Shown: piece by piece, positions 29,313 to 48,184 of the stretch
How positions within the stretch are numbered: position 1 is the first letter of the stretch
Layout: every line of letters starts with the position of its first letter
Assembly (NCBI GenBank): GCA_033813635.1
Contig: JAPXRI010000005.1
Location: 43,941 to 107,940 of the forward strand
DNA from: Bacillota bacterium
GTDB lineage: Bacteria; Bacillota; Clostridia; Oscillospirales; QAMX01
DNA length: 64,000 nt
Direction of reading: 5' to 3'
Made by a program: the position numbers and the translations under genes
The notes under the pieces: generated by a model
Told to the model about the DNA's origin: nothing
What the model saw: only the letters and a program-made list of their open reading frames with translations
Databases searched by the model: none

Positions 29313-29313
29313 T

Positions 29314-29955
29314 TTAATCCCCTTTCCGTGTAATCCAGCGCTCGTCCGCGGGATCGTCGCGGAAGGCCTTCAGCCGCGCCACGTCGGATTCCTTTATATA
29401 CCCCTCGGCGAGGGCGGTTTTAATCAGCGAGTCGAAATCCGTCAGGCTGACGTTTTTTATGCCCGCGGACTTCAGCGCTTCGATGCCCTTTGCCATGTTG
29501 TAGGTGAAGATGCTGACGATGCCGAGCACCTCGGCCTTTGCCTCCTTTAAGACGTCCGCCACCTCGAGAACGCTTTTGCCGGTGGAGATCAGGTCCTCGA
29601 CAATCACGACGCGCCGGCCGTGGTCAAGCCTGCCCTCGATCCGGTTGCCGCGGCCGTGGTCCTTCGCGCCGGAGCGCACGTAGCCCATCGGCAGGTTCAG
29701 CAAATGCGCGACGATTGCGGCGTGGGCGATGCCGGCGGTGCTGGTCCCCATCAGGACCTCGCAGTCCGGGTAATGGGTTCTGACTGCGGCGGCCAGCGCG
29801 TTTTCAATCGCGTTTCTGACCTCAGGGGCCGTCAGCGTCAGCCTGTTGTCGCAGTAGATCGGGCTTTTGATGCCGCTCGCCCAGACAAAGGGATCGTCCG
29901 GCCGCAGAAATACGGCGCGGATCGAGAGCAGATATTTCGCGATGTCGTCCTTCAT
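29314..29955 (-). CDS. pyrE: Orotate phosphoribosyltransferase
   Basis: The ORF is trimmed to [10 protein letters not shown] (ATG 29955, which overlaps the pyrF stop as TAATG). PRPP motif [11 protein letters not shown]. Confidence 0.9.
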
Positions 29956-30659
29956 TAGAAACACTCCCTGCCTAAAAATTCCGCTCTGCATCTTTGGTAA
30001 GCCGCCGCCGGGTCCTGCGCCGCCGTAATCGAGCGGCCCACCACGATGAAATCGCTGCCGAGCGCAGCCGCGCCGGAGGGCGTCGCGGTACGCGCCTGGT
30101 CGTCCGCGCAATCCCCGGCAAGGCGTATGCCCGGCGTCACCGCGACGAAGCTTTTGCCGCAGGCGGCCTTGACCGCGCCGACCTCCAGCGGGGAGCAGAC
30201 GACGCCGTCGCCACCGGCCTTCTTGGTGTTTTTCGCGTAAGCGATGACCGTGTCCATCATCGACTCGCCGATTAAAAGCTCGTTTTGCATGCACTCCTCG
30301 GTCGTTGAGGTGAGCTGCGTCACGGCGACCAACAGCGGGCGCGGTCCGTCCCCGAGCCCGTCGAGTGCGGCGGATATCATCGCCGTCGTCCCCGCGGCGT
30401 GGACATTGATTATGTCCGCGTCAAGCGATTTCAGAACGCGCATTGTTTTTCTGACGGTGTTTGGGATATCGTGCAGCTTCAGATCCAGAAATACCCTGTG
30501 CCCGCGGGCCTTAAGCTCGCGTACGACCCCGGGCCCGTCTGCGCAGAAAAGCTCCATCCCGATTTTGACAAACGGTTTTTGATCTCGAAAGCGGGATAAA
30601 AAGGCGAAGACCTCGCCGGCGGAGTCGAAATCCAGCGCGATGATGACGTCCTTTTCCAT
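29955..30659 (-). CDS. pyrF: Orotidine-5'-phosphate decarboxylase
   Basis: 234 aa with IIALDF, VKIGMELF and FLDLKLHDIPNT motifs. Confidence 0.9.
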   Translation of the reverse strand: MEKDVIIALDFDSAGEVFAFLSRFRDQKPFVKIGMELFCADGPGVVRELKARGHRVFLDLKLHDIPNTVRKTMRVLKSLDADIINVHAAGTTAMISAALDGLGDGPRPLLVAVTQLTSTTEECMQNELLIGESMMDTVIAYAKNTKKAGGDGVVCSPLEVGAVKAACGKSFVAVTPGIRLAGDCADDQARTATPSGAAALGSDFIVVGRSITAAQDPAAAYQRCRAEFLGRECF

Positions 30660-30683
30660 ATCATAATCCTTTCAGTTAAGTAT

Positions 30684-31601
30684 TTAGCCGCCGTGCGCGG
30701 CCCCGACCGCGTCGCGCAGGCGCCGGATCCCTAGGCCGTCGCAGACCCTGTGCAGGCTTTCGACGATGTTTTTGCAGGCGTAGGGGTCTACGAGGTTTGC
30801 CGAGCCGATCTGGACGGCCGAGGCGCCGGCCGCAGCCATCTCGATCACGTCATCGGCGGATGAAACACCGCCGACGCCGATGATAGGGATTTTAACGGCG
30901 CGGTATACCTCGTAAACCATCCTGAGCGCTACCGGCAGCACCGCCGGGCCGGAGAGCCCGCCAAAGATGTTTTTAAGGACCGGGCGGAGGGTTCTCAGGT
31001 CAATCCGCATCCCGAGCAGCGTGTTGATCAGGCATATTCCGTCGGCACCCTCGCTCTCGCACGCCCGGGCGATCTCGGCGATGTCGGCGACGTTCGGGCT
31101 CAGCTTGACAAAAATCGGCTTTTTCGTCGCAGCCCTTGCCGCCCGGGTAATCTCCGCCGCGCCGGAAGCCGTCTTCCCGAAGCTCATGCCCCCGTGGGAG
31201 ACGTTGGGGCAGCTGATGTTGAGCTCGACGATGTCGGCGCAGCCGCAGTCCTCTGCCCGGGCGCAGCAGTACGCGTAATCCTCCTCGCAAAAGCCGCTGA
31301 CGTTCAGGATAATCGGGTTTTTGAAATGCTTCCGAAGCTCCGGGAGCTCCCGCGAAAGCACCGTCTCTATCCCGGGGTTTTGCAGCCCGACCGAGTTCAG
31401 CAGCCCGGAGGGCGTCTCGGCGACGCGGGGGCCGGGATTGCCGGAGCGGGGAAGGCGCGTCGTCCCCTTGACGGCGATTGCGCCGAGCAGGTTCAAATCG
31501 TATAGCTCCCAAAACTCCGCGCCGTAGCCGAAGGTGCCGCTGGCCGGGATTACCGGGTTTTTCAGCGAAACACGGCCGAGGTCAACGCTTAAATCCGCCA
31601 T
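30684..31601 (-). CDS. pyrD: Dihydroorotate dehydrogenase (class 1B) catalytic subunit
   Basis: 305 aa with NPVIPASGTFG, ELNISCPN and IGVGGV motifs. Confidence 0.9.
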   Translation of the reverse strand: MADLSVDLGRVSLKNPVIPASGTFGYGAEFWELYDLNLLGAIAVKGTTRLPRSGNPGPRVAETPSGLLNSVGLQNPGIETVLSRELPELRKHFKNPIILNVSGFCEEDYAYCCARAEDCGCADIVELNISCPNVSHGGMSFGKTASGAAEITRAARAATKKPIFVKLSPNVADIAEIARACESEGADGICLINTLLGMRIDLRTLRPVLKNIFGGLSGPAVLPVALRMVYEVYRAVKIPIIGVGGVSSADDVIEMAAAGASAVQIGSANLVDPYACKNIVESLHRVCDGLGIRRLRDAVGAAHGG

Positions 31602-32332
31602 AATATTTCCTCCGTTTTGAACACGGGCCCGTCCCTGCAGACGCGCTTCATTCCGGAGACCGTCTCGATCGCGCAGCCCATGCAGGCGCCGAACCCGCAG
31701 GCCATCCTGGCCTCGAAGCTGTATTGCCCGGGCGTGTCGCGGAGGCTGCGGAGGGCTTTGAGCATCGGCATCGGTCCGCAGGCGAGGACATAGTCGTAAT
31801 CGAGCTTAAGCTTTTTTATCACGTCCGTAACGAATCCCTTTTCTCCGAGGCTTCCGTCCACCGTCGAGACGACGACTCTGCAGCCGAGCGCCTCGAATTC
31901 TTCAATATAAAAGGACTCTTCACTCGTGTTGAAGCCGAGAACCACTGTGAGTTTCTCCCGCTCCGGCAGCCGCTTTGCGAGGCCGTAGAGCGGCGGGATG
32001 CCGATGCCGCCGCCCACCGCCAGCGGGCGCTCGGTATTTACCCGCAGGTCGAAGCCGTTGCCGAGCCCGGCGAGCATCTCGAGGCTTGCGCCGGGAGCCG
32101 TCCCGGCGAGGATTTCAGTCCCTTTGCCGACGACCTTGTAGATCATCTCAAAGCCGCCGGGATAAAAGTCGCTTACGGATATCGGGCGACGGAGGTAGCA
32201 GCCGGATAGCGCGACGCCGGCAAACTGTCCCGGCGCGGTAAAGCAGGCCGCGTCCCCCGAAAAGCGGGCAAGGCGAATGTTTTTCGCGATCTCTTCGTTT
32301 GATAAAAGTGTGCAGCTCTGTTTTCTCAGCAT
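31589..32332 (-). CDS. pyrK: Dihydroorotate dehydrogenase electron-transfer subunit
   Basis: 247 aa with the C-terminal 2Fe-2S motif CGFGACMGC...C. It overlaps pyrD by 13 nt. Confidence 0.85.
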   Translation of the reverse strand: MLRKQSCTLLSNEEIAKNIRLARFSGDAACFTAPGQFAGVALSGCYLRRPISVSDFYPGGFEMIYKVVGKGTEILAGTAPGASLEMLAGLGNGFDLRVNTERPLAVGGGIGIPPLYGLAKRLPEREKLTVVLGFNTSEESFYIEEFEALGCRVVVSTVDGSLGEKGFVTDVIKKLKLDYDYVLACGPMPMLKALRSLRDTPGQYSFEARMACGFGACMGCAIETVSGMKRVCRDGPVFKTEEILWRI

Positions 32333-32395
32333 CGTATCCCCCGTTTAGACAAAATCGAATGCCGCGTGCGCTCGGTTCACGGGCTTAATCCAGCG

Positions 32396-33706
32396 TCATA
32401 TTGCGTTTCCGACGCCGCGCATCCGCGCGCCGTATCTGTCGTCAATCCATACCGTTTCGCCCCTGTAAAGAGCCAGAACGCAGCTTCCCCATACATCCGC
32501 GCCCTCAAAGGGCGTGCTCTTTCCCAGCGATATGAATCTCGCGGGGTCAATTTTATACCGGCTTTCTAGGGAGAAAACCGAGATGTCCGCGGGCTTCCCC
32601 GCCTTAATTCCACATTCGAGGTCAAACGCCGCGGCGGCGGAGACGCTCATCAGCCGTATAAGGCGGCCGAGGCTCAAAAGCCCGGTTTTAACAAGCCCGG
32701 TATACAGGACCGGGAACACGCACTCGAGACCGGTAATTCCCATCGCGCTGCCGGCAAGGCCGTTGCTTTTTTCCGCTTGCGCGTGGGGAGCGTGGTCGGT
32801 GGCGATCATGTCGATCGTACCGTCGGCAAGGCCCTCGCGGAGCGCCTCCATATCGGCCCTCGCCCTGAGCGGCGGATTCATCCTATACCGCCCGTCGTCC
32901 TTCAAATCCTCGTCGCACAGCAGCAGGTAGTGCGGGGCCGTCTCGCAGGTGACGTTCACGCCGCGGCGCTTGGCATCCCTGATTAAAGCGACGCTCTCCT
33001 TTGTCGAGACATGGCAGACATGGTAGCGGCACCCCGTTTTTTCGGCAAGAGATAAGTCTCGTTTGACCATCCGCCACTCGCTCTCCGAGCTGATGCCCCG
33101 CAGGCCGCGCCGCGCCGCATACTGCCCGGCGTGGATGATCCCGTCCGCGGCGAGCGCGTTGTCCTCGCAGTGGGCGGCTATGACTTTGCCGAGGCGCTTT
33201 GCAGAAAGCATCGCTTTTTCCATCACATCTGCGTCTGAGACGCCGGAGCCGTCGTCCGAAAAGCCGGCGACGTACGGCGAGATCGCCTCCATATCCGAGA
33301 GCTCCTCCCCGGCGCGGTTTTTCGTGATGCAGCCGTAGGGACGGACGCCTATGCAGGCGTCTTTTTTTATTATGTCGAGTTCCTTTTGGAGCGTACCCGG
33401 GCAGTCCGGCGCGGGGTTTAGGTTCGGCATCGCGCAGAGGGTGGTATAGCCGCTTTTCGCGGCGGCCAAAGCGCCGGTGCGAATCGTCTCCTTATATGAA
33501 AATCCGGGCTCCCGAAGATGTACATGGACATCGACGAGGCCCGGAAATACGAACAGTGATTTTAAGTTGTAAACAGCGTCAAAGCCTTTTGATGAAATAT
33601 GAGGGGAAATGAAATCAATTTTTCCGTCCGAAACGGAAATATCGCATTTTGAAAATGAATCGCCTCTCTCCGTGTAAACGGTTCCGCCGGACAGCAGGAG
33701 CTTCAT
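32396..33706 (-). CDS. pyrC: Dihydroorotase
   Basis: 436 aa with PGLVDVHVHLREPG and ATDHAPH motifs. Confidence 0.9.
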   Translation of the reverse strand: MKLLLSGGTVYTERGDSFSKCDISVSDGKIDFISPHISSKGFDAVYNLKSLFVFPGLVDVHVHLREPGFSYKETIRTGALAAAKSGYTTLCAMPNLNPAPDCPGTLQKELDIIKKDACIGVRPYGCITKNRAGEELSDMEAISPYVAGFSDDGSGVSDADVMEKAMLSAKRLGKVIAAHCEDNALAADGIIHAGQYAARRGLRGISSESEWRMVKRDLSLAEKTGCRYHVCHVSTKESVALIRDAKRRGVNVTCETAPHYLLLCDEDLKDDGRYRMNPPLRARADMEALREGLADGTIDMIATDHAPHAQAEKSNGLAGSAMGITGLECVFPVLYTGLVKTGLLSLGRLIRLMSVSAAAAFDLECGIKAGKPADISVFSLESRYKIDPARFISLGKSTPFEGADVWGSCVLALYRGETVWIDDRYGARMRGVGNAI

Positions 33707-33828: not shown

Positions 33829-35262
33829 TTACTTGGCGGGTTCGCCGAGCGCCTTCATCACGAGCCGCTGAATCAGCTCGGGATTGCCGAGGCCGTCCGT
33901 CTTCGCGATCGTCTGGCCGATAATCGCCTTCGCCGCGGCGGTCTTTCCCTTCTTGTAATCGGCGACGGATTTCGGGTTTTCCGCCATCGCTTCGGCGACG
34001 AGCTTTGAAAGGAGGGCTTCGTCGTTGATCTGGTAGAGCCCGCGCTCCTCGACCAGTCGCACCGGGTCAACGACACCCCGGGAGAGCTCTTTGATAAGCT
34101 GCTTCGCCGTTCCGGCATTGATCTTGCCGTCGCCCGCAAGGTCGCAGACAGAGGCCATGCCCTTTGCGGAGACAGGGACCTCGCCGCCGTCCGGCGGGAC
34201 GAGCTTGATCACCTCGGATATGGCGAAATTCGCCGCAAGCTTCGGGTAGCGGGTCATTTTCGCCGCGGTCTCGAACCAGTCCGCGACCGCGCGCTCCGTG
34301 GTCAGCAGCTCGGCGTCCAACGGGGTAAGCCCGTATTCTCCGATGTAGCGGCGTTTTCTCTCGTCCGGGAGCGCGGGGATCTCGCTTTTCAGACGGGAGA
34401 GCATCACGCTGTCGGTGACAATCGGCGGAAGATCCGGGTCTGGAAAATATCGGTAGTCGTTGGCGTTTTCCTTCGAGCGCATCGGGAAGGTTTTGCCGGT
34501 GGCCTCGTCGAAGCGCCTTGTCTCCTGGATAATCGTCTCCCCGTTCTCGACAGCCTCCACCTGGCGCCGAAACTCGTACTCGATTGCCTTGGCGACGAAG
34601 ACGAAGGAATTGATGTTTTTCATCTCGGTCCGCGTGTTCAGAACGTTCTCGCCCTTTTTGCGGACGGAGAGGTTGACGTCGCAGCGCATAGAGCCCTCGT
34701 TCATTTTGCAGTCCGATACGCCGGTATAGAGGATGACCGCGCGCATCTTCTTTAAATAGGCGACGGCTTCGTCGGGGGAGCGCAGGTCGGGTTCGGAGAC
34801 AATTTCGATCAGCGGCACGCCGCAGCGGTTGCAGTCGATCATCGTGCCGTGTTTAGCGTCGTGGATCAGCTTCCCGGCGTCCTCCTCAATGTGGATCCGG
34901 GTGATGCCGATGCGCTTTACGCCCGAGGGCGTCTCAATGTCGACGCCGCCGTTCTCACAGAGGGGCAGGTCGTACTGCGAGATCTGATAGGCCTTGGGCA
35001 GATCGGGGTAAAAATAGTTTTTCCTGTCCTGCTTTGAAAAGCTCGAAATGCGGCAGCCCGTGGCGAGACCGGCTTTGATCGCGTACTCTACCACCTTTTT
35101 ATTCAGCACCGGCAGCGTGCCGGGCATGCCCATGCAAACCGGGCAGCACTGGGTGTTCGGCGGCGCGCCGAAGGCGGTTTTGCAGCCGCAGAATATCTTT
35201 GTGTCGGTTTTCAGCTCCATATGGACCTCTAGGCCGATGACCGGCTCGTAATCGCTAAACAT
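33829..35262 (-). CDS. gatB: Asp/Glu-tRNA amidotransferase subunit B
   Basis: 477 aa. The N-terminus [23 protein letters not shown] and the C-terminal YqeY-like tail are present. Confidence 0.95.
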
Positions 35263-36706
35263 TGGCTTTACCCCCTTTGACGTCCTGTTCGAAGGCGTAG
35301 GCGGCGCGGTAGATCTGCGGCTCGGCGAACGCCTTGCCGACGAGCTGCATGCCGACCGGCAAGCCGTTACTGTCCGTTCCGCAGGGTACGGACATCGCCG
35401 GCAGGCCGGCGATGCTGACCGGGACCGTGCAGATGTCCCCGGCGTACATCTCGAGCGGATTTGTTATCTTCTCTCCGATGCGGTACGCGGTCGTCGGCGC
35501 CGTGGGCGAAAGGATCAGGTCCCAGTTCTCGAAAACGCGGCTGAAATCGCGCATAATCAGGCTCCTTACCTTCTGGGCCTTTTTGTAGTAGGCGTCGTAA
35601 TAGCCGCTGGAGAGGGCGAAGGTGCCGAGCATTATGCGGCACTTGACCTCATCGCCGAAGCCCTCGCTGCGGGAGTTCTCGTAGAGCTCGTCGATCCCGG
35701 AGAATTCCGAGGCCGCGCGGCCGAAGCGTATGCCGTCGAACCGTGCGAGGTTCGACGACGCCTCCGCGCTGGAGATCACGTAATAGGCGGCGAGGGCGTA
35801 GTCGAAGGTCGGTATCGAGACATAGTCTATGATTGCGCCCAGGCGCTCGAATCTCTTCGCGGCGTTTTGGACGCTCTCCTTTACCTCTTTGCCGATGCCG
35901 GGACCGTAAAACTCCTTCGGCAGGGCGATTTTCATGCCTGCGACGTCTTTTCCGAGGAGCGCCGTATAATCCGGCCGCGGCGCACTGAGGCTTGTGGCGT
36001 CCCGGACGTCGTGTCCGGAGATGGCGTTCAGCACAAGGGCGTTGTCCCGCACGGTTCCGGTGATCGGGCCGATCTGGTCAAGGGACGAGGCGAACGCCAC
36101 AAGGCCGTAGCGCGAGACGCTGCCGTAGGTCGGCTTAATGCCGACGACACCGCAGAACGCGGAGGGCTGGCGGATTGAGCCGCCGGTATCCGACCCGAGG
36201 GCGAACGGGACTTCGCCTGCGGCGACGGCCGCGGCGGAGCCGCCCGAGCTTCCGCCGGGCACGCGGGAGGTGTCGCGGGGGTTTCTGGTCACTTTGACCG
36301 CGGAGTTCTCTGTGGATGAGCCCATCGCGAATTCATCCATGTTGAGTTTACCGAGCAGCGGACAGCAGGCGAGGCGCTCCGCGACGTCTGCGTCGTAGGG
36401 CGGGACGAAGTTCTCGAGCATTTTCGAAGCGCAGGTGGTTTTTACGCCGCTGGTGCAGATATTATCCTTCAGCCCGACAGGAATCCCCGCCAGCGGCGGA
36501 AGGGATTCGCCAGACGCGCGCTTTTTGTCTGTCTCTTCCGCCGTGGCCAGCGCTTTATCGGCGCAGACGGTCAAAAAAGCGTCTATTTCGGGCTCTTTTT
36601 TGTCGATCTGCGCAAGGTACGCGCGCGTTATCTCCGAGGAGGCAAGCTCTCTCCGGGACAAAAGTCCGGAGAGCTCGGATACCGTTTTATTCAAAATGCC
36701 GTTCAT
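35255..36706 (-). CDS. gatA: Asp/Glu-tRNA amidotransferase subunit A
   Basis: 483 aa with the amidase signature [12 protein letters not shown]...[11 protein letters not shown]. Confidence 0.95.
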
Positions 36707-36738: not shown

Positions 36739-38826
36739 TTATTCCACGACTCGCGGGACGAGAATGTACTCATCCGTCTTCGACGGGGCGTTTTTTATAA
36801 GTGCTTCCCGCGTGGGGGCGGAGACCGGGACATCGTCCCTCAAGACATTGACGAGCGGGACGACGTGCGCGGTCGGCTCGATATCGTCGGTGTTTATCTC
36901 CGAGAGCTTGTCGGCGAATGCGATAATCGCGTTCATATCCTCAACAAGCTTCTGTTTTTTCTCCGGCAACAGCTTCAGTTTCGCGAGGCGCGCGATGTGC
37001 TCCGCGTCGATTTGCGGGTGCTTGACTTTGACCTTTACGGGGTAAGCCGCCGCGTTTTCCTGCGGGGCCTGCGTAAGACCGAGAACGTCGAGCTGTTCCC
37101 TGTCGACGGTGTCGGGGGCGTTCGTCATCGGGCAGGAGGCGTCTTTTATCTTCGGGAACGCGATAACCTCGCGGAGCGACTCCGCGCCGACAAGGAGCAT
37201 TGCGAGCCTGTCGAGCCCGAAGGCGAAGCCGCCGTGCGGCGGCGTGCCGTAGCGGAACGCGTTGAGCATGAAGCCGAAGCGCCGATTTGTCTCCTCTTCT
37301 GAAAACCCGAGAGCCTCAAACATCTTCTGCTGGATTTTTCTGTCGTGGATGCGGATGGAGCCGCTGCCGAGTTCGACACCGTTCAGCACCACGTCGTAGG
37401 CCTGGGCGCGGACGCGCGCGGGGTCGCTCAGCAGGTACCGCACGTCCTCAGGGAAGGGCATTGTGAACGGGTGGTGGGTCGCGACGAAGCGCTTTTCCTG
37501 CTCGGAGTACTCAAACTGCGGGAAATCGGTGACAAACAGAAACTTATAATCGTCCTTTTTGCGCAAGCCGAGGCTGTCGGCGATGTCGAGCCTGAGGGAG
37601 CCGAGTACGCGGCGGACGGTCGAGAGCTTGTCGGCGCAGAAAAGGATAAAATCGCCGGGTTTCCCGTCGGTTAGGGAGACGATTTCTCCGAGTTCAGAGT
37701 CCGTGAAGTATTTTGTCATAATCGAGTAGAACCCGCCGTCCGGGCGGATCGCGATCCAAGCCATCCCTTTCGCACCGTATCCCACCGCCCTGTCGGTGAG
37801 AGCCTCGATTTCCGAGCGGGGCATTTCGGCGCCGCCCTTGATGTTGAGCGCCCGCACGACGCCGCCGGATTTAATCACGCTTCTAAACACAGAGAAGCCG
37901 CATCTGCCGGCGAGCTCGGAGAGGTCGACGATTTTCATGTCGAAGCGCAGGTCGGGCTTATCCGAGCCGTAGAGATCCATTGCCTGCTGCCAGGTGATGC
38001 GGGCAAACGGCTCGGCGATGTCCACCCCCTTCATCTCCCGGATGATGTGCTTGAACAGCTTCTCAAGGTGGTTCAGCACTTTTTCCCGGTCGACAAACGA
38101 CATCTCCATGTCCACCTGGGTGAATTCCGGCTGGCGGTCAGCCCGGAGGTCCTCGTCGCGGAAGCAGCGGGCGACCTGGTAGTATTTATCCATCCCGGCG
38201 ACCATCAGAAGCTGCTTGAAGATCTGGGGTGACTGGGGCAGCGCGTAAAACGTGCCCTGGTGGACACGGCTCGGGACAAGGTAGTCTCTGGCGCCCTCGG
38301 GTGTGGATTTCGTTAGTATCGGAGTCTCCACCTCGATAAAGCCCTCGGCGTCGAGGTAAGCCCTGACCGCCTGCAACAGCCTGTGGCGGCAGCGCAGATT
38401 TTCGAACATCTCCGGGCGGCGGAGGTCCAGAAAACGGTATTTCAGGCGCAAATCCTCCCTGACCTTAACATCGTCGTCCAGCGAGAACGGTAGCGGGTCG
38501 GCCTCGGACAAAAGCTCGAGCCTGGTCGCCCGGAGCTCGACGGTGCCCGTCTTAAGCTTGGGGTTGTAGGTCTCCTCGTCGCGGATGAAAACCTCGCCGA
38601 ACACCGCGATCACGGACTGGTTTCGCAGGGTTTCGACAATGCGGTATTCGTTCTCGGGAATTTTTTGCGCGTTAAAGACAACCTGGAGGATGCCCTCCCG
38701 GTCTTTCAGGTCGACAAAGATGACCCCGCCCATGTCGCGCTTGGTCTGTACCCAGCCGCAGGCGGTGATTTTTCTGCCGACATCCCTCTCGGAGACGTCG
38801 CCGCAGTAGATCGTCCGTTCCATCAT
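36739..38826 (-). CDS. aspS: Aspartyl-tRNA synthetase with a C-terminal GatC domain (AspRS::GatC fusion)
   Basis: 695 aa. Residues 1 to ~590 are a bacterial-type AspRS ([23 protein letters not shown]). The last ~95 aa ([60 protein letters not shown]...YILVPRVVE) align along their length with GatC. No separate gatC ORF precedes gatA. Confidence 0.85.
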
Positions 38827-38879
38827 TTTTTAATCGTTCCTTTCTCGTGGGAGAATACCGGCTTGAGATGGCCAATAAA

Positions 38880-39197
38880 TAAGAAAATCCTCCGCTCCGA
38901 AGCAAAAGCTCCGGGGCGAAGGATGTTGTTCCTCCGCGGTGCCACCCGCATTGCCTAAAAAAGGCCGTCTTAAAAGCACTAACATGCTTTTTGGCTGTAA
39001 CGCGCCAAACGCGTCTGCGTCTACTCGGAAACGCGAATGCGTTTCCTTTCGGACAGAGGCTCCGGGCTGTTCTTCACATCTAAATACCGTGCCGCGCTCG
39101 CACCTTCTCAAAGCGATAAAAGCCTTGATCTGCGGCGGCTCTCTGTAACGGGTTTATAGAGCTACTCTTCCCATCATTGCCGATATGCTTATATATT
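38880..39197 (-). promoter_or_regulatory. T-box leader (tRNA-sensing riboswitch) with intrinsic terminator
   Basis: The minus strand contains AATGCGGGTGGCACCGCGGAGGAAC (T-box core, rc of 38934-38952). Downstream lies the terminator CCTTCGCCCCGGAGC-TTTT-GCTTCGGAGCGGAGG followed by ATTTTCTTATTT. Upstream are stem-I elements (GAAGAGTA, CAGAGAG, GGTGCGAGC) and a specifier-loop-like GTGAAGAACAG. Confidence 0.8.
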
Positions 39198-39204: not shown

Positions 39205-39233
39205 ATTATACCATACGATATATCCTTTGTCAA
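39205..39233 (-). promoter_or_regulatory. Consensus sigma-A promoter driving the T-box leader
   Basis: The minus strand reads TTGACA-17 nt-TATAAT, a perfect consensus. Confidence 0.75.
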
Positions 39234-39327
39234 ATATTTTATGAAAAAACTGCTGCGATATACGGTGCAATCCGGGTGAAAAAATGGTACAATAACGGTG
39301 CGAAATAAGTCAAAGGGAGTACCGAAA

Positions 39328-39954
39328 ATGGGTGAGAAAAAATGCGTGATTATCGGAGCGGGCGAATTTTCGGGGGAAATCGCCGCACCGGAAGAGCACG
39401 ATCTCGTGATCGCCGCGGACGGGGGTTATGCCCGCGTTCGGGCGCTGGGGCTGAAAATCAACGCGGTAATCGGAGATTTCGACTCGCTGGGATATGAGCC
39501 GGAGCACGAAAATGTAATCCGGCTCAGCGTGGAGAAGGACGACACCGACACATTGGCCGCAATCAGGTACGGGCTTGATAACGGTTGCCGGGAGTTTGAT
39601 ATTTACGGCGGGACGGGGGGCCGGATCTCGCACACGATAGCCAACATCGAGTGCCTCGCGTTTCTGTCGCAGCTCGGCGCGAGGGCGCGTCTTTTCGGAA
39701 ACGGATTCTATATCACCGCCGTAACCGACGGAAAAATCGAGTTTAACGCCGGAACGAAGGGGAAGATATCGGTTTTTTCGCACGGAGACAAGGCGGAAGG
39801 GGTATACCTTGAAGGGCTCAAATACCCCCTTCGGGATGCGACGCTTTTAAACACCTTCCCTCTCGGGGTCAGCAACAGCTTTATCGGCGCAAAAAGCTCC
39901 GTCAGGGTGGAAAGAGGGACGCTGATCGTCATATGCGAGGAGAACGAAAGCTGA
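39328..39954 (+). CDS. thiN: Thiamine diphosphokinase
   Basis: VIIGAGEF, VIAADGG, VIGDFDS and KDDTD motifs. The start is moved to MGEKKC (ATG 39328). Confidence 0.8.
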   Translation: MGEKKCVIIGAGEFSGEIAAPEEHDLVIAADGGYARVRALGLKINAVIGDFDSLGYEPEHENVIRLSVEKDDTDTLAAIRYGLDNGCREFDIYGGTGGRISHTIANIECLAFLSQLGARARLFGNGFYITAVTDGKIEFNAGTKGKISVFSHGDKAEGVYLEGLKYPLRDATLLNTFPLGVSNSFIGAKSSVRVERGTLIVICEENES

Positions 39955-40099: not shown

Positions 40100-42250
40100 T
40101 TATATCGCCTTTGGCGGCCACGCGGTGTATTCGCTGGTGTCTCCGAGCTCGGCGGAGAGGGCTTTTGCGGCGGCGGCAATTTTATCGCACCAGGCGATCG
40201 TTTTCTCTATCGGCGGGGTTCCCTGCTCCCAGTTCTCCCATGCATCGAACATCTCCACAAACGGGGCGGGGTCGACAATGCCCGAGCAGAGGCGAGAAAA
40301 GTCGTTTATACATTGGGTCCTGTGGTTTGCGTATACGCCTTTGGCTTCGAGGGCGGAGCGGATGACGCCCCAGGCGACCGTAAACGCCGAGTAGAAAAGC
40401 GCGTCTGCCTCCTCGTCTTCACTATTAAGCTTGCGGCCCTTGTAAAATGAGATAAACTTCTCCCTTGTCTGTGCGACGCCCTCGATCTCGCATGAGACGA
40501 GCTCGGTATAGCCGGACTCGCTGATGCGCTTACGGCGGTTTTCAGGGGTGTCGTGGGCCGCGTCGGCGAGCTCCTCGGTCAGGCTGACGTAGAGGGGCAG
40601 GCGGTGGCGGCCGGGTGCCTTGAGCCAGGTCTCGGCGAGGGCTTCGGATTTCTCATAGAGCTCGTCGCCTACCATGCCGCGGGAGACGGCATCCTGCAGC
40701 GTCAGGAAGAATTGATCCATCGTGAGAACTTCAATCTCGGGATGGTCCTTCAGCTTGTACATCTCGTCGTTGAGCTGCTTGTAAATGCCGTTAGCAATCT
40801 GCGCGAACAAGAACAGGAACAGCGGCCTGGTTTTGCACTCCTCGGATAATTTGACGATATCTTCGATATTGTCCCGGCCGACGTTGGCTATATGGACCGA
40901 GTGGAGTTTCGGAATCTTTCCTTTGGGGTAACTGACCGCGTACGGCGAGCCGCCGAGACCGCAGACAAGCCCGGGGGCTCCGGGGGACAGATATTCCATT
41001 TCACACGCGATAGCCGCGTCGTCTTCGACCTCGCGCCACCAGTCCTGCAGCAGCCAGTTGACCATATTGCAGCCGTTCTGTCCGGACTGGTCCAGCAGCC
41101 GCCGACTCTCCTTCAGGTAGACGGGCGCGAGGTCTTCAGGCCAGAGGAAGGAATAGGTATAGCCCGCTCCGGAGGACGGACCCCAGAAGCAGTCGTTCGG
41201 ACGTCTGGTTTTCTGATAGTATTCGTACATGCCGGGCATAATCTGCACCAGCAGGGGCAGAAAGCCCCAGCTGTACGGGAAAGAGCCCCTGTTCGGGTCC
41301 ATCCAGTTTTCGCAAAGCAGATTGTTCATGACCCACGTCGCGTCGCCGTCGCTGTTGTAGAAGCAGACGTAAACCTTGTTTTTCTCGGCGCGGCATTTCT
41401 CCTCGGGTGGAAGGGGCTGGGCATAGGCCTTTTTGCGGTCGCCCACGCCGCCGTGTATTGTCATATTCGGAGAGCCGGTGCTGCAGAGCGAGAAAAATCC
41501 GAACTCGGCAGCAGCGGCGATATACTCCTTTTCCTGTTCCCACGCGCAGCACCAGACAAGCTGGACTCCCGGCGCCTCCGCGATTTCCATCATCTTTCTG
41601 AAGAGGTTGAGCGTGCGGCGGCACACGCGGTTTCTCGGCAGGTCAATCGCGAACGCGCGGTTGTACACGAGATAGTCTATCTGTTCGTGACAAAAACCGT
41701 GCCAGGAAGACCGGTGGACGCAGAGGTTCGCGTACATGCGGCGGTTGCAGCGGGGCCACAGGTTTTCTACCGCCCATTCCGCGGCGTCCCAGTTATCAGC
41801 AAAGCGGCCGCGCAGGTCGTCGACTTTTTTTATGCCGTGGCGAATCATGTACTCCTCTTCGCAGGGCGCGATGGGCAAAGTGCCTTCGAGACCGCAGAGC
41901 GTGATAGCGATGTTCTGGGTCTGAATAACGTCGGTGTTGTCGTATACGACGTAGCCGCTGACAAGGTCCTTATACTTCTCAAGAACCTCGTCCGGCGTCA
42001 AGCGCTCGGTTATCGGAATGCCGTAATCCTCGGTATAGACGCGCAGCCAGTGGCGCTCGTAGGGGTTGTTGTCCCGGATGACGTAAAGGTGGGGTTCGAC
42101 ACGGTTCACAAGGCCCTGGAGCGCGCGGTACCAGATCCAGAAGTCGGTTCCGGCTTTCAAAGGCTCGGAGAGCGTCAGCCTTTTTACCTTCGGAATATCG
42201 GGAAAAATCGATGTGAGCGAGGGATCGGAAGCCCTGAGGCTTTTTGCCAT
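40100..42250 (-). CDS. GxGYxYP-family putative glycoside hydrolase (signal-less)
   Basis: The start is trimmed to MAKSLRAS (RBS AAAGGATGG). It contains GPSSGAGYTYSFLWP, a GxGYxY(P/S) motif. The family call is from memory. Confidence 0.55.
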   Translation of the reverse strand: MAKSLRASDPSLTSIFPDIPKVKRLTLSEPLKAGTDFWIWYRALQGLVNRVEPHLYVIRDNNPYERHWLRVYTEDYGIPITERLTPDEVLEKYKDLVSGYVVYDNTDVIQTQNIAITLCGLEGTLPIAPCEEEYMIRHGIKKVDDLRGRFADNWDAAEWAVENLWPRCNRRMYANLCVHRSSWHGFCHEQIDYLVYNRAFAIDLPRNRVCRRTLNLFRKMMEIAEAPGVQLVWCCAWEQEKEYIAAAAEFGFFSLCSTGSPNMTIHGGVGDRKKAYAQPLPPEEKCRAEKNKVYVCFYNSDGDATWVMNNLLCENWMDPNRGSFPYSWGFLPLLVQIMPGMYEYYQKTRRPNDCFWGPSSGAGYTYSFLWPEDLAPVYLKESRRLLDQSGQNGCNMVNWLLQDWWREVEDDAAIACEMEYLSPGAPGLVCGLGGSPYAVSYPKGKIPKLHSVHIANVGRDNIEDIVKLSEECKTRPLFLFLFAQIANGIYKQLNDEMYKLKDHPEIEVLTMDQFFLTLQDAVSRGMVGDELYEKSEALAETWLKAPGRHRLPLYVSLTEELADAAHDTPENRRKRISESGYTELVSCEIEGVAQTREKFISFYKGRKLNSEDEEADALFYSAFTVAWGVIRSALEAKGVYANHRTQCINDFSRLCSGIVDPAPFVEMFDAWENWEQGTPPIEKTIAWCDKIAAAAKALSAELGDTSEYTAWPPKAI

Positions 42251-42421
42251 GATTTTTATCCATCCTTTCTGGGCGGAAGTATTGTGCGGGACAAGCATAT
42301 CACAACGCTACGGAGAAATCAACGTCATAACAGGGGTAATATAACGACAAAAACGCGCTACATTTGGAGCATTCACACATGGATTTATGAAAAAACTTGT
42401 GTGACAGCTTCAAGCGAGGCC

Positions 42422-42462
42422 AAAAAAGACCACACTAAAGATACTATCTTTAGTGTGGTCTT
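42422..42462 (-). terminator. Strong rho-independent terminator in non-coding DNA
   Basis: The minus strand reads AAGACCACACTAAAGAT-agt-ATCTTTAGTGTGGTCTT (a perfect 17-bp stem) followed by TTTTGG, so the last two stem Ts plus these four form a run of six T. Confidence 0.7.
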
Positions 42463-42727
42463 AATGTTTGCTAAGTTTAACCGGATATTTTTAAGTCTGT
42501 CAATAATTTTGCACTAATCCCGCTGAAGATAGGTCTTAACCCTATCGTCTGCAACTACCAATTGCTTTTCTTAAATCCGTTCCTGTAATTGTTCTTGTTT
42601 AAGATTCCCATTGCTATCAAGTTTCCGCAGTTTATCAAATATTCTTCCGAATGAAAAGCGTACAAATTACATCACACTCCCTCTTTTTTGCCTTATCTCT
42701 ATTCACTCTATTTGCTCCGACAGGCTT

Positions 42728-42761
42728 GAGAAAGGCGAGGAAACCCTCGCCTTCTCTTTTT
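42728..42761 (+). terminator. Plus-oriented hairpin with a T-run abutting the 3' end of a minus-strand gene
   Basis: GAGAAAGGCGAGG-aaac-CCTCGCCTTCTC followed by TTTTTATT. The T-run overlaps the TAA stop of the 42760..44322 gene. Confidence 0.45.
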
Positions 42762-44322
42762 ATTGCAGGGTCTTTGCCAGCACATCGCCAAGGCGGACTC
42801 TTGCGCCGTAGAACGTGTCGTCATTGTCAGAAAAAACGAACATATCCGGTGCATCTGTTCCGTAAAGAGCCTTGTTCAATTCCGGCGCAGGGTTGACAAG
42901 GGGATTTATAATGCTTGCCAGCTCGTCTGCCGAAAGCAGCTCTTTTGCCATGGTCAGCATTTCAAAGTCGTCAATACCGGCGCGAATCATTTCAAGCCGC
43001 AAAGAACCCACCGGCCCGTCGATTCCGATTTCGTTGCCGTTGTAAAGCAGGCTGCCGTCACCGGGGCGGATTTTGTCGTAGGTAAAGGGGTCATTCCAGG
43101 GGGTGCCTTCCATGCTCCAGTGGTTGGCGCTCCAATACAAAAGCCCTTCGATGTCATAGGCAAACTGCTGCCAGAACAGCACCCGGTGCTGGGCGCCGGT
43201 GTTATCCAGGTTGAGGTCGCAATAAGTCTTCAAATACGGGAAACCGCAGACATACCACCAAGTTTTGTGACCCCTGGCGCGTTCTTCCTTCATGCGGGTC
43301 AAAACGGTGCCAAAGGTTTTGACAATGTCGCCGTTGGGGTCGGCAAATCCATCCTTCACATAGCCGGCGGTACCGTTGGTGCCGAACATGTCCGAGCGAA
43401 GGCACCAGTGGGTTTGGTGCGAGCCTAAGAAAGAGATGTTGTCATACCCCTCTGGGAAAAGCCTGGAATCGCCCAGTGGCGTGATGATCTGGAAACTTGG
43501 CCAAAGCCTTTCAAGTCTTGTTACGGCTAGCCGATAACGCTCTAGCCTTTCGGGGGCAGAGGGTTCATCTACCGGATAAAAAAGCCCTTTTTTCAGCCAG
43601 TCGGGGTTTTGAGAAAGCCTGGCGCGGTAGGCAAGGATGGTTTCATCATCTTTTGCGTAGGGGATGCGAAAGTGTGTTACCCGTGGGTCGTTCAGATAGG
43701 CGTCGGCTCGATCATCGAGTAAGCCAAAAGGAAGGTCATCGGCACAGATCTTGTGATCGAGCAGGAAGTCGTAGTATGTTTTGTAAAGCTCGTCGGCATT
43801 TTCCTCAGACGCGTTGTGCCGCTTTTTAAGATAGTCTTTGTTCAACCCAAACAGTGTGCCGCAGGATGGCACATCGGGCAGCGTAAAACCCCAAACTTTC
43901 GCGGTAAATTCCAACCGGTTTAGCACTTCCCCGTCTTTTTCCACCCGGCACACACCGGTATACACCCCGGCAGAAGTCTCTTTTGAGGCGCTTATGCGGA
44001 CGAAAAAAGATGGCGAATCGTTTCGCGCGGCGGAAAACGTTCCGGTGTTGGGTATCATGGCATCGGGCAGCGGACGATTGCGAACGGGCAGATAAGCAAG
44101 CTGAAACGCTTCCGCGGTAAGAACATCCCCCGTTTCGGAAACGGGGTTTTCGACGCAGAACGTCAATCCCTCTACCGGGTCGTTGGTCCAAATGGTCACG
44201 TGAAAGCCGTCTGTGCCGTTTTTGGGAAGCATTGCCTGATAGGTGGCAAAGCCTCCGTCGTGGTCGTCTTTATACACTTTGCGGGTGGGATGGTTGAAGC
44301 GGCAGCGCAGTTCGTATGCCAT
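42760..44322 (-). CDS. DUF4091-domain protein (GH123-like putative glycosidase), signal-less
   Basis: 520 aa. The C-terminal half (HKTWWYVCGFPY...DNTGAQHRVLFWQQFAYDIEGLLYWSANHW...GDGSLLY) matches my recollection of the DUF4091 pattern. Confidence 0.55.
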   Translation of the reverse strand: MAYELRCRFNHPTRKVYKDDHDGGFATYQAMLPKNGTDGFHVTIWTNDPVEGLTFCVENPVSETGDVLTAEAFQLAYLPVRNRPLPDAMIPNTGTFSAARNDSPSFFVRISASKETSAGVYTGVCRVEKDGEVLNRLEFTAKVWGFTLPDVPSCGTLFGLNKDYLKKRHNASEENADELYKTYYDFLLDHKICADDLPFGLLDDRADAYLNDPRVTHFRIPYAKDDETILAYRARLSQNPDWLKKGLFYPVDEPSAPERLERYRLAVTRLERLWPSFQIITPLGDSRLFPEGYDNISFLGSHQTHWCLRSDMFGTNGTAGYVKDGFADPNGDIVKTFGTVLTRMKEERARGHKTWWYVCGFPYLKTYCDLNLDNTGAQHRVLFWQQFAYDIEGLLYWSANHWSMEGTPWNDPFTYDKIRPGDGSLLYNGNEIGIDGPVGSLRLEMIRAGIDDFEMLTMAKELLSADELASIINPLVNPAPELNKALYGTDAPDMFVFSDNDDTFYGARVRLGDVLAKTLQ

Positions 44323-44367
44323 GGGATCCCCTCTCCTTTTAATTCAAAATATGCTCCAGCGCATTGC

Positions 44368-44535
44368 CTATACGGGATTTTGCGCTGTAAAACGTGCCAT
44401 CATGCGTTTTTGGACGATGGCTATAGTATTGTTTTTGCTTATATAACTAGGCCTTTGTGGTTATCCGATGATACAAACTCTACTTTGGCAAGCCCACATG
44501 CTTTCAGCTGGTGATAAACCCATCCCAGCTATTGG
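44368..44535 (-). mobile_element. Relic of an IS256-family (mutator-type) transposase gene
   Basis: The minus strand encodes ...WVYHQLKACGLAKVEFVSSDNHKGLVI*. Compare the IS256 Tnp segment ...FFQDLKARGLKGVELVISDAHKGLVSAI. A further fragment, AIVQKRMMARFTAQN, follows after a stop. No intact ORF and no inverted ends are recognisable. Confidence 0.5.
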
Positions 44536-44610
44536 ATACACTAGGGGTATGCAATGTAGATATGCAAAATCCGAAATCGCCGGCTTTTTTGCCGTGCTTG
44601 GGCCGTTCTG

Positions 44611-45636
44611 TTAAAAAAGCACGGTCTTTTTAGTTTTTGCGCTTTCGATGGCCTTATAAACCATCCGGATGCTGTGGATATTGTCGCGGCAATCGGTCTG
44701 GGGTCTTGTTCCGCTTTGCAGAGCGGCGAACATTTCGTTGATGCACGCGTCGTGGTAGGTATTTGCCATAGGCATCGGCGCGACTTTCCTAAAGGAAGAA
44801 GTGATCTCGTTTTCGTCGGATATGCCGGTTTTGGCGGTACTATCGGCGGTGGCATCATAGTACAGCTTTTCGGCCCCGTCCCAGAAAACGGCGCCGTTTT
44901 CACAGGCTACCCGCCATTCGGATTCCCAGGAGGTGTTCAATCCGTTGGCGCACCAGCTTCCGCGGTAATCAAACACAGAGCCGTCCTCCATTTCAAAGAC
45001 GCAAATGGCGCTTGCGTTGCCTTGATACCAGGACCAGAACGGGTTGAATTCGTGGCAATAAACGGAGACGGCGTTTTTACCGGTAAGAAACCGGCATGCG
45101 TCAAAGGTGTGGATGGCCATATCGGCAATCAGGGGGCTGTCCATTTCTTCCCGGAAGCCGCCAAAATGAGGATCCAGTTGGAAGTTGGCGGATACCTGGC
45201 CGATCTTGCCAAGGGTTTTGGCATGCAAAAAGTTTCTCAAGGCGTACAACTGTGGGATATACCGTCTGTTTTGCATGATAAAATACTCTTTTTTCGTCTC
45301 GTTTGCGCATTCTACCATTTTTTCCGATTTTTCAAGCGAATCGGACATCGGTTTCTCGCCGAACACGTGGCACCCCGCCCTCAGCGACGTTGTAACAACG
45401 TCGTAATGCGCACTTGGCACAGTAATGTCGAACACGATGGTGGCGTCTTCTTTGTCCAACGCCTCTGTAACGCTTGCGTATGTATTGGCGCTTAACGCGT
45501 ATTCTTTTTTTTGGGCCTCCGCCCTTTCCGGAATAATGTCCACAAGCGCGACGATTTGGGAATCCTCTCGGTTTTTCGCGTGCTTGATCCAGGTGCCAGA
45601 CATCATGCCGCAGCCGGCAACGATTATTTTATGCAT
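44611..45636 (-). CDS. Gfo/Idh/MocA-family NAD(P)-dependent oxidoreductase
   Basis: 341 aa with a Rossmann N-terminus (KIIVAGCGMMSGTW) and the EKP motif (FGEKPMS). Confidence 0.8.
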   Translation of the reverse strand: MHKIIVAGCGMMSGTWIKHAKNREDSQIVALVDIIPERAEAQKKEYALSANTYASVTEALDKEDATIVFDITVPSAHYDVVTTSLRAGCHVFGEKPMSDSLEKSEKMVECANETKKEYFIMQNRRYIPQLYALRNFLHAKTLGKIGQVSANFQLDPHFGGFREEMDSPLIADMAIHTFDACRFLTGKNAVSVYCHEFNPFWSWYQGNASAICVFEMEDGSVFDYRGSWCANGLNTSWESEWRVACENGAVFWDGAEKLYYDATADSTAKTGISDENEITSSFRKVAPMPMANTYHDACINEMFAALQSGTRPQTDCRDNIHSIRMVYKAIESAKTKKTVLF

Positions 45637-45650
45637 GCAGCAACGCTCCT

Positions 45651-46553
45651 TTATATTCTTACCTCATCGCTTTCAAAATTCGGAACCCATTCGCCGCCGC
45701 GGCAGCGCTTCAGATAGTTCAACGCGAAAACCTGCCCGGTATATTCTAAATCGCCTCTGTAAACTGGGTCATGCCAGCCCTCTATGTCGATGCTTCCCTG
45801 AAAACCTGACATCCGGAGGATGGAAATAATATCCGTCCAGTTGCTGTCGCCAAATCCGGGCGTGCGGTGCCAAACAAACGGCTCCCGTCCGCAGATTCCG
45901 CTTTCTTTCACCACATCCCACGCGATTGTCGCATCCTTGCCGTGGACGGCAAATACCTTTTTCGCCCATTTGCGAAGCTGTGGAATCGGATCGACCAACT
46001 GCACCATTTGGTGGCACGGCTCCCACTGCAGGCCGATGTTGTCATGCGGAACCGCTTCAAACATCATCTCCCACGCGGCGGGAGAAAAAGCAATGTTCCA
46101 GTCGCCCCGGGTCCAGTCCCCGTCCATATTGCAATTTTCAAAGGCAATCCGAACGCTTTTTTCCTGCGCAAGCTCCGCAAGCGGGGTAAACACCTCCCGA
46201 TATCTGGGGATAGACTCCTCGACAGGTCGGTCGGGCAGCCGCCCTGCAAAACCGGTTACCAAATCCGTGCCGAAAAGAGGTGCGGCATGAATGAGCTTTT
46301 CCCAGCTTTCTCTGGCCTCGGCCCCTTTTTCCATATCCACCAAAGGATTTGAAAAGAGGGACAGACAGGAAATTCGGCAGCCTGTGCCCGCCAGAATTTT
46401 GCGCGTTTCTTCTGCCAGAAGCGCTAAATCCCAATCGCCGACCGTTTCCCAGAATGTAATGGAAAACGTTTCGAAGCCGTAAGGGATCAGTTTTGGCATT
46501 ACTCTTTTTACATTGTCCACGCTGACCAACGTTCCGATTTTAATTTCATGCAT
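45651..46553 (-). CDS. Xylose-isomerase-like TIM-barrel protein (sugar phosphate isomerase/epimerase family)
   Basis: 300 aa. The family-typical pattern is present (...RIAFENC..., ...HGKDA..., IDIEGWHD...). It lies 14 nt upstream of the oxidoreductase gene. Confidence 0.7.
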   Translation of the reverse strand: MHEIKIGTLVSVDNVKRVMPKLIPYGFETFSITFWETVGDWDLALLAEETRKILAGTGCRISCLSLFSNPLVDMEKGAEARESWEKLIHAAPLFGTDLVTGFAGRLPDRPVEESIPRYREVFTPLAELAQEKSVRIAFENCNMDGDWTRGDWNIAFSPAAWEMMFEAVPHDNIGLQWEPCHQMVQLVDPIPQLRKWAKKVFAVHGKDATIAWDVVKESGICGREPFVWHRTPGFGDSNWTDIISILRMSGFQGSIDIEGWHDPVYRGDLEYTGQVFALNYLKRCRGGEWVPNFESDEVRI

Positions 46554-46660
46554 ACGATATCGCCTCCGAAAAATAATACGGTCAATACTATTATCTATAT
46601 CTGCTTGGTTATTTCTTGCATTTTATTGGTGTATTATGATACGATGTTGGCATAGGGGGT
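46551..46660. repeat. Copy A of a ~110-bp inverted duplication (divergent promoter/operator module)
   Basis: By eye, roughly nine positions in ten are identical to the reverse complement of 47743..47851. The match includes a perfect 25-mer, TCAATACTATTATCTATATCTGCTT (46582-46606 versus rc 47797-47821), and the direct repeats TTGGTGTA/TTGGCATA spaced 21 bp apart. Confidence 0.85.
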
Positions 46661-46667
46661 GGGAAAA

Positions 46668-47537: not shown

Positions 47538-47569
47538 GTAAATAGCGAAGTTTAAGAACCGTCAGGATA

Positions 47570-47689
47570 TCAATCAAATATACCGCCATTCCATCCATGA
47601 AATGGATTTTCACTCCAAAAAATTGCGTCTTGCAAGTCATACATTTTGCGCAATCGGTTGTTTCGGTTATTATTGCAACTATTCCGCAT
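47570..47689 (-). pseudogene. 39-codon remnant of a second araC-type gene (N-terminus only)
   Basis: MRNSCNNNRNNRLRKMYDLQDAIFW... aligns with residues 5-25 of the intact regulator (MRFFEHAERNNRSFYIYDLK). It sits behind copy B of the duplicated promoter module. Confidence 0.35.
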
Positions 47690-47742
47690 TGAAAACTACC
47701 GTGCACCCCTCCCAAAAAAGTTATTGTTGGGTGGTTTTAGTT

Positions 47743-48010: not shown

Positions 48011-48184
48011 GGAATTTCTACCCCATCTGCCGACGCTGCGAAACGGAAAGGTATACCGGGCAAAGTATGGAAAAGCGCCCAAACCTCGAATAAGCTACCC
48101 ATTTGCTATCCCTGTCATTTTACTAGAAAAGATGAAAAATAAGACAAAAGGATTTGTCGTAACAAATAAAGGGAGAATATTAAA

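Follow-up and report, generated by a model that had tools for sequence, protein, structure and literature searches.

A natural AspRS-GatC fusion gene at the head of a predicted T-box(Asn)-controlled transamidation operon in a Clostridial genome

The fusion gene and its operon

The stretch of DNA analysed here, hereafter referred to as the window, comprises 64,000 nucleotides of a Bacillota bacterium genome (Clostridia; Oscillospirales; QAMX01), namely positions 43,941 to 107,940 of contig JAPXRI010000005.1 (assembly GCA_033813635.1), and the coordinates given for it below are counted from its first letter. On the minus strand of the window, a single open reading frame (ORF) of 695 aa (36739..38826) encodes an aspartyl-tRNA synthetase (AspRS) followed, in the same chain, by subunit C of the aspartyl/glutamyl-tRNA amidotransferase GatCAB. 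This gene, indicated as aspS::gatC, precedes gatA and gatB in what appears to be an operon dedicated to tRNA-dependent transamidation.

The AspRS module spans residues 1-585 (37072..38826, minus strand) and, according to Pfam, is composed of an anticodon-binding OB (oligonucleotide/oligosaccharide-binding) fold (tRNA_anti-codon, PF01336, residues 21-106), the class II catalytic core of the D/K/N type (tRNA-synt_2, PF00152, residues 124-560) and the GAD insertion that is specific to bacterial AspRSs (PF02938, residues 314-407). Two NCBIfam models cover this part of the protein over residues 2-587, the aspartate--tRNA ligase equivalog NF001750 with 821.5 bits (cutoff 443) and TIGR00459 with 750 bits (cutoff 373.85). 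The QSPQ, FRDE and GLDR motifs are invariant across the fusion family, and the best matches of the fusion in the Protein Data Bank (PDB) are bacterial AspRS chains, including the non-discriminating (ND) AspRS of Pseudomonas aeruginosa (4WJ3_M, E 1.5e-170). A linker of 20 residues (residues 586-605; 37012..37071, minus strand) leads into the GatC module, which occupies residues 606-695 (36742..37011, minus strand) and is closed by the stop codon at 36739-36741. The module is recognised by PF02686 over residues 621-690 (71.6 bits vs a gathering cutoff of 23, E 6e-20) and by the gatC equivalog TIGR00135, whose cutoff is 47.1 bits and which scores 84 bits in the context of the fusion (residues 607-695, profile positions 5-93 of 93) and 89.9 bits on the isolated tail. 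Moreover, the tail aligns end to end with the crystallised GatC chains of Staphylococcus aureus (2DF4_C, 6-94/100) and P. aeruginosa (4WJ3_C, 14-103/104), and aligns also with 3KFU_G; the fused arrangement itself was absent from the solved structures retrieved in the PDB search. The initial annotation of this DNA, produced by a model from the letters of the sequence, had described a complete AspRS at the N-terminus, a short linker and a full-length GatC tail ending in ...YILVPRVVE, and had named the score of the tail against the GatC profile as a check. The domain limits given above agree with that description at every point, and the tail scores far over the cutoffs of both GatC models.

Immediately downstream on the same strand lie gatA (35255..36706, 483 aa; Pfam Amidase; TIGR00132, 624 bits vs a cutoff of 481) and gatB (33829..35262, 477 aa; Pfam GatB_N and GatB_Yqey; NF004012, 615 bits vs a cutoff of 338). 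The stop codon of the fusion is separated from the ATG of gatA (36706) by a 32-nt gap holding an AAGGAGG ribosome-binding site, and the last 8 nt of gatA are shared with gatB. A tblastn search of the 64-kb window (E<0.01) revealed no second gatC, gatA, gatB or aspS/asnS/lysS-like gene. In addition, of the 53 ORFs called in the window, 20 others were compared with Pfam, namely the ten adjacent to the operon and, of the rest, the ten longest; none of these 20 is glnS, asnS, asnA or asnB. No tRNA gene was detected in the window by ARAGORN. The gene content of the operon had been described from the start as gatA beginning 32 nt past the fusion stop, gatB coming next and no free-standing gatC, and the coordinates, the equivalog scores and the window search are all in agreement with it. 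What had been overlooked is an Asn-specific T-box riboswitch located upstream of the three genes, which is considered below.

Integrity of the aspS-gatC junction

The most trivial explanation for a fused gene would be a sequencing or assembly error hiding a stop and a start codon between aspS and gatC, an eventuality already contemplated in the initial annotation. Protein homologues were collected as the best matches from a collection of 5.8 billion proteins, and genomic loci by scanning one genome per GTDB species. Among the 120 homologues listed, all 120 are 692-738 aa long and carry PF02686, and the frame is continuous in 120/120 of the listed protein clusters; in particular, a copy 100% identical to the window protein is encoded by an independent Joint Genome Institute (JGI) contig (P0001), and the homologue of one isolate is named 'Multifunctional fusion protein' in UniRef. 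The genome scan yielded at least 80 related loci at 56-67% protein identity, no species representative of the genome collection having more than 70% AspRS identity to the window. Nearly all of these loci come from gut metagenome-assembled genomes (MAGs) of Clostridia, Oscillospiraceae or Eubacteriales, with further members in Peptostreptococcaceae, Anaerovoracaceae and Acidaminobacter. In 80 of 80 loci a single stop-free frame runs from AspRS into GatC, exactly one GatC-like stretch is present with no other gatC within about 6 kb, and, as far as the contig extends, gatA and gatB come next in this order. An uninterrupted frame in all the listed homologues and loci rules out a sequencing or assembly error, whose residual probability is practically nil, and the AspRS-GatC fusion gene is confirmed as real and as correctly read in the initial annotation.

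Two observations concern the records themselves. Five of the MAGs (L001, L002, L031, L061 and L069) are titled Prevotella, Bacteroidaceae, Bacteroides or Phocaeicola dorei, yet carry the Clostridial-type operon; since their fusion proteins are 60-67% identical to that of the window, these labels probably derive from mis-binning or mislabelling. Furthermore, one protein of 363 aa (P0122) combines the N-terminus of an SdhA/FrdA flavoprotein with the C-terminus of AspRS, the linker and GatC, which most likely points to a chimeric contig or to an error of gene calling.

The segment that joins the two modules is variable. Across 77 homologues the linker measures 14-33 aa (median 19) and shows little conservation; Ala, Lys, Glu, Gly and Ser are abundant in it, and no member of the family has a stop codon there. 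The GatC module that follows it opens with the conserved pattern I-D-V-x-x-V-A-x-L-A-x-L. A side observation is that the linkers (window 37012-37071, minus strand, and L001-L080) almost always end with a Lys/Arg-rich stretch, for example KKKK or KVKVKH, just before the start of GatC; this basic patch might be a tRNA contact or a mere relic. An AlphaFold2 (AF2) single-chain model of the fusion, built on an alignment of 36 sequences, reached a mean predicted local distance difference test (pLDDT) score of 63.5, with residues 582-602, in the linker region, below 50. In this model the N-terminal helices of GatC are moderately confident and the C-terminal half of GatC is unstructured, a pattern that would be expected of a subunit that folds against its partners.

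A flexible and Lys-rich linker, which proteases could reach, raises the question of whether free GatC could be released from the fusion by proteolysis, or be produced by internal initiation, so that the cell would in the end hold AspRS and GatCAB in their usual, separate forms. In fact, half of the homologues have an in-frame ATG, GTG or TTG no more than 12 codons away from the GatC boundary. However, an in-frame start codon accompanied by a Shine-Dalgarno-like motif occurs near the boundary in only 6 of 77 homologues, at positions that are not conserved, and no such in-frame start precedes the first GatC helix in the window; similarly, there is no sign of a conserved cleavage site. As no internal start is conserved, there is no conserved route to free GatC by internal initiation, and we regard the production of a free GatC, by either route, as very improbable.

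A T-box riboswitch upstream of the operon

The region preceding aspS::gatC contains a promoter and a T-box leader with its terminator, all on the minus strand. A sigma-70-type promoter with a TG extension (TTGACA-17 nt-TATAAT, 39205..39233), identical to the consensus at 12 of 12 positions, is located about 20 nt upstream of a leader (38909..39186) that matches the T-box family RF00230 of Rfam over the full model (1-219), with 77.5 bits and an E-value of 5.2e-17. As this score is lower than the gathering threshold of the family (93), the leader is detected by the E-value threshold only, and at the gathering threshold Rfam gives no match in the whole window; the low score is explained by insertions in the distal region of Stem I and downstream of Stem I. 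Within the leader, the specifier AAC (Asn; 39071-39069) is found in the context GAAG-AAC-A (39075-39068; region GUGAA-G-AAC-A), where an overlapping GAA (Glu) triplet (39072-39070) shares the specifier loop with it. Further downstream, the T-box core GGGUGGCACCGCG (38947-38935), with its UGGC bulge (38944-38941), precedes an intrinsic terminator (38877..38924) consisting of a 17-bp hairpin, AUCCUUCGCCCCGGAGC/GCUUCGGAGCGGAGGAU, and a U-run. The hairpin is present in the minimum free energy fold (z = -3.9 vs shuffles) and was found independently by a terminator scan; as read from the sequence, its 5' arm can pair with the T-box core instead, giving rise to the antiterminator.

These features are shared by the family. 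The T-box core motif is found upstream of the fusion in 58 of 81 loci, and in the related leaders that could be aligned the specifier is AAC without exception (56/56) and is followed by a purine in 54 of 56 cases. A G preceding the specifier, which generates the GAA triplet, is found in 47 of these 56 leaders; since AAC is invariant and GAAC is not, dual sensing of Asn and Glu may not be general in the family. In one related fusion-bearing genome, a tRNA-Asn gene has a U1-A72 pair and G73, and a tRNA-Asp has G1-C72. At its variable position the bulge of the leaders has U or C, either of which is a possible partner for the G73 of this tRNA-Asn, and U1-A72 is the element recognised by bacterial GatCAB (PMC4206432, PMC2330236). 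The T-box represents the strongest evidence for the function of the operon: because of its presence, of the invariant AAC specifier and of a tRNA-Asn bearing U1-A72, the operon is predicted to sense uncharged tRNA(Asn) and to serve the synthesis of Asn-tRNA(Asn) as a transamidation unit.

A second fusion lineage

The initial annotation had proposed to survey the co-occurrence of the two domains and its taxonomic spread. Such a survey shows that the fusion is widespread, in Clostridia and in Desulfobacterota, and that it is not new to databases: NCBIfam contains a model, NF009460 (PRK12820), defined as 'bifunctional aspartyl-tRNA synthetase/aspartyl/glutamyl-tRNA amidotransferase subunit C'. 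The AspRS-GatC architecture is already catalogued, in NF009460 and in UniRef, and is present in hundreds of species of Clostridia and Desulfobacterota. The window protein matches NF009460 along nearly its entire length (residues 5-693, positions 23-721/723) with 642.4 bits, under the cutoff of 1379; membership in this equivalog was consequently rejected, and the window represents a different, Clostridial sequence lineage. On the other hand, a literature search returned no paper on a natural AspRS-GatC fusion, the reviews retrieved make no mention of one (PMC7373986, PMC2330236, PMC9499178, PMC8762117), and the sole match to 'aspS-gatC' was an artificial operon. Natural fusions of this type are widespread and annotated in databases, and apparently uncharacterised. 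What is added here is a Clostridial member of a known fusion type, set in a T-box(Asn)-controlled operon.

When a junction-spanning fragment was searched against a library of representatives clustered at 50%, mostly fragments were returned, and the full-length fusions seem to be hidden in clusters under unfused AspRS representatives. The divergent junction-spanning fragments obtained from this library score best on NF009460, and a search with one of them led to a large second fusion lineage, with proteins of about 720 aa from Desulfobacteraceae, Desulfatiglans, 'Deltaproteobacteria' and Thermodesulfobacteriota. These Desulfobacterota fusions have the same order of domains as the window protein, that is OB fold, class II core with GAD, linker and GatC, and the same operon, aspS::gatC-gatA-gatB (L081, 6001-11205; L082). 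The operon lies beside the glutamine synthetase gene glnA and glnE, in divergent orientation, and a T-box was not found in the Desulfobacterota fusion locus. Sequence comparison sets the two groups apart: the AspRS part of the window protein is about 45% identical to the Desulfobacterota fusions, a value equal to that of four full-length unfused AspRS representatives, and the fused GatCs of Desulfobacterota share about 35% identity with its GatC part, vs 55% for a free-standing GatC. In a rough neighbour-joining tree, the two fused groups are also separated, with free GatCs between them. On the basis of these identities and of the tree, the Clostridial and Desulfobacterota fusions probably arose independently.

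The closest relative carries a free gatC

The library of representatives also yielded free GatCs, and the one nearest to the window tail is a protein of 96 aa with its own Met start (P0146), found on contigs from many samples. Its locus (L083, 5700-6291; also L084 and L085) has the synteny of the window, with a divergent thiamin pyrophosphokinase gene, gatC-gatA-gatB and pyrC-pyrK-pyrD, and the proteins of the L083 type are the most similar to those of the window that were found (GatA 69.5%, GatB 71%, PyrD 75%, thiamin pyrophosphokinase 72%). By comparison, the GatA and GatB proteins of five fusion-bearing loci are 62-65% identical to those of the window in four cases and less so in L077. The L083-type locus contains no aspS and no detectable T-box. 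Nevertheless, local alignment of the two leaders, evaluated with shuffles, shows that the L083 leader keeps, in the window order, a -10 box, the block ACAGCCCGGAGCC that lies beside the specifier, and the terminator, the last of these blocks reaching a score of 56, whereas shuffled sequences averaged 18 ± 2.3 and did not exceed 27; the blocks stand much closer together than in the window. This arrangement looks like a fission of the fusion accompanied by riboswitch decay, and would most simply be read as a secondary deletion, in the L083 lineage, of the riboswitch core together with the aspS module. A deletion of aspS would imply that another AspRS is encoded elsewhere in that genome. In Clostridium acetobutylicum, three aspS genes are present, one of which is T-box regulated (PMC2494555, PMC4206432); by analogy, and from this one comparison, the fused aspS may be an extra copy dedicated to Asn. 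From the same single comparison we infer that the AspRS-GatC fusion can be lost.

The free-standing gatC to which the nearest relative has returned at this locus bears on the possibility that the fusion is neutral, in other words that the loss of the stop codon between adjacent aspS and gatC genes was tolerated with no gain in channelling. A linker that is unconserved in both sequence and length would be in line with such a history, as would the T-box-controlled transamidation operon that works in C. acetobutylicum (PMC4052509), which is reportedly non-fused (Saad et al. 2012). Against it, the fusion is kept in at least 80 species-level genomes across 56-67% protein identity, and a second lineage, with no special relationship to the first, has it too. 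This persistence, together with a probable recurrence, suggests that the fusion has some selective value, and a purely neutral origin and maintenance appears unlikely, albeit with a larger share of probability than the release of free GatC discussed above.

A proposed mechanism for the tethered transamidosome

The elements described so far can be assembled into a mechanism, in which promoter, T-box(Asn), aspS::gatC, gatA and gatB would constitute a single transcription unit. Uncharged tRNA(Asn) would bind the leader through two pairings, that of its GUU anticodon to the AAC specifier and that of its free 3' end to the UGGC bulge, which would stabilise the antiterminator and allow the operon to be read through. 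The first product would be one chain of 695 aa in which about 20 flexible residues connect AspRS to GatC, and this AspRS would be non-discriminating, charging tRNA(Asp) as well as tRNA(Asn). GatA depends on GatC both for folding and for the binding of GatB (PMC2330236); because of this requirement, and given that GatC is fused and that the operon has no other gatC, every GatA-GatB pair made from the operon would assemble on an AspRS subunit. Since AspRS is a dimer, the resulting complex would be (AspRS-GatC)2(GatA)2(GatB)2, a standing particle assembled without tRNA and with a stoichiometry fixed at 1:1. In such a complex, the Asp-tRNA(Asn) leaving the AspRS site would be handed to the tethered amidotransferase and released as Asn-tRNA(Asn). 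Unfused AspRS and GatCAB, by contrast, associate only via tRNA, and their complex is dynamic when the AspRS is of the bacterial type (PMC3367201).

The idea of a 'hard-wired transamidosome', advanced in the initial annotation, is consistent with the evidence and plausible. That the fusion protein is intact in the cell, has the stoichiometry indicated and confers a benefit through channelling is what we infer from the genes. The specificity of the AspRS is presumably non-discriminating, the best support for this being indirect and coming from the gatA/gatB operon, the AAC specifier and the U1-A72 pair of the tRNA-Asn. Some observations, however, weigh against the proposed mechanism. In the AspRS of P. 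aeruginosa, the anticodon-domain residues H31 and G82/83 are associated with acceptance of tRNA(Asn). The corresponding pair is H/G in P. aeruginosa and in mycobacteria, L/K in E. coli, and Met32 and Glu in the window protein; this last combination is neither ND-like nor E. coli-like, and Met32 is invariant in the fusion family. In addition, the AF2 model is too poor to indicate whether a linker of about 20 residues would bridge the C-terminus of AspRS and the N-terminus of GatC in a productive transamidosome. Moreover, in a genome lacking both GlnRS and a second GatCAB, a permanent tether could hinder the synthesis of Gln-tRNA(Gln). Finally, at least one lineage can do without the tether, as in the closest relative the aspS module is gone and gatC is free.

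All things considered, we judge it likely that the locus is, as a whole, a T-box(Asn) operon encoding an intact, tethered AspRS-GatC transamidosome. A broader proposal goes further, namely that a constitutive, tRNA-independent transamidosome acts as an asparaginyl-tRNA synthetase partly in cis and commits GatCAB to Asn, having arisen at least twice and having been lost at least once with decay of the riboswitch; we put it forward tentatively, its chance of being correct falling somewhat short of even.

Genomic surroundings of the operon

The operon is followed, immediately past gatB and in the same orientation, by a pyrimidine biosynthesis cluster (28395-33706, minus strand), with genes for a dihydroorotase, a PyrK-like Fe-S subunit, a dihydroorotate dehydrogenase, a phosphoribosyltransferase-domain protein and an aspartate carbamoyltransferase, whereas a thiamin pyrophosphokinase gene is encoded divergently upstream of the operon (39298-39954, plus strand). 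Beyond the latter, the region 40100-49948 contains a cluster of genes putatively similar to glycoside hydrolases (GxGYxYP family, GH123 catalytic domain, DUF4838), together with genes for an oxidoreductase of the GFO/IDH/MocA type and for a TIM-barrel protein resembling xylose isomerase. A gene for a spore germination protein of the GerA family lies at 21000-22634 (plus strand), and the large ORFs of the window with no Pfam match include 2080-3960, 15361-16812 and 55225-56679. The G+C content of the window is 55%; this value, the germination protein and the best database matches together assign the window to a spore-forming lineage of Clostridia.

Significance and comparison with known systems

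The finding of the fusion leaves the known chemistry of the pathway unchanged. Its interest derives from the fact that the extent of real channelling in the known transamidosomes is still argued. A natural fusion distributed across hundreds of species offers a stable form of the transamidosome for structural work, where a comparable fusion of the Gln complex had to be engineered in order to obtain crystals (PDB 3AL0), and fused and split forms allow a clean comparison of mistranslation and kinetics. Furthermore, the linkage with T-box(Asn), together with a relative devoid of both riboswitch and aspS, provides an evolutionary handle on when a tether pays. If the independent gains, and the loss accompanying riboswitch decay, prove to be true, they would represent a natural experiment on whether channelling keeps Asp-tRNA(Asn) away from translation.

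With regard to gene regulation, the closest known counterpart is the T-box that controls a transamidation operon in C. acetobutylicum, which is described as carrying overlapping Asn and Glu codons (PMC4052509, PMC4574755, PMC11404447). The window resembles this 'NT-box' in having a T-box over a transamidation operon and overlapping Asn and Glu codons, the sequence at that point being GAAC. The window family differs from it in that only AAC is invariant (56/56), the overlapping GAA occurring in 47/56 leaders. As to gene organisation, aspS and gatC are reportedly separate genes in the C. acetobutylicum transamidation operon (the operon of Saad et al. 2012).

The system shares its components with the Asn-transamidosomes of Thermus thermophilus, Helicobacter pylori and P. 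aeruginosa (3KFU, 4WJ3), which consist of an ND-AspRS, tRNA(Asn) and GatCAB, and the AspRS of the window is of the bacterial, GAD-containing type, as in 4WJ3. The difference resides in the way these components are held together, as the known Asn-transamidosomes are non-covalent assemblies that depend on tRNA(Asn) for their formation (PMC3367201, PMC2330236), whereas in the window GatC is covalently joined to AspRS. A covalent link between GatC and a non-discriminating synthetase is found also in chain C of PDB 3AL0, the Gln-transamidosome of Thermotoga maritima. That chain, however, is engineered, contains a class I GluRS and has the opposite order, the C-terminus of GatC being joined to the N-terminus of the synthetase.

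Other covalent extensions of GatC are on record. Yeast GatF consists of an N-terminal extension on a GatC-like core (PMC4027206), and in Mycobacterium smegmatis a stop-loss mutation fuses GatC to GatA (PMC7541841). Like the window fusion, both cases indicate that GatC tolerates covalent extension. On the other hand, the GatC-GatA fusion of M. smegmatis was selected in the laboratory and raises mistranslation, and neither this fusion nor GatF joins the amidotransferase to a synthetase, as the window protein does.

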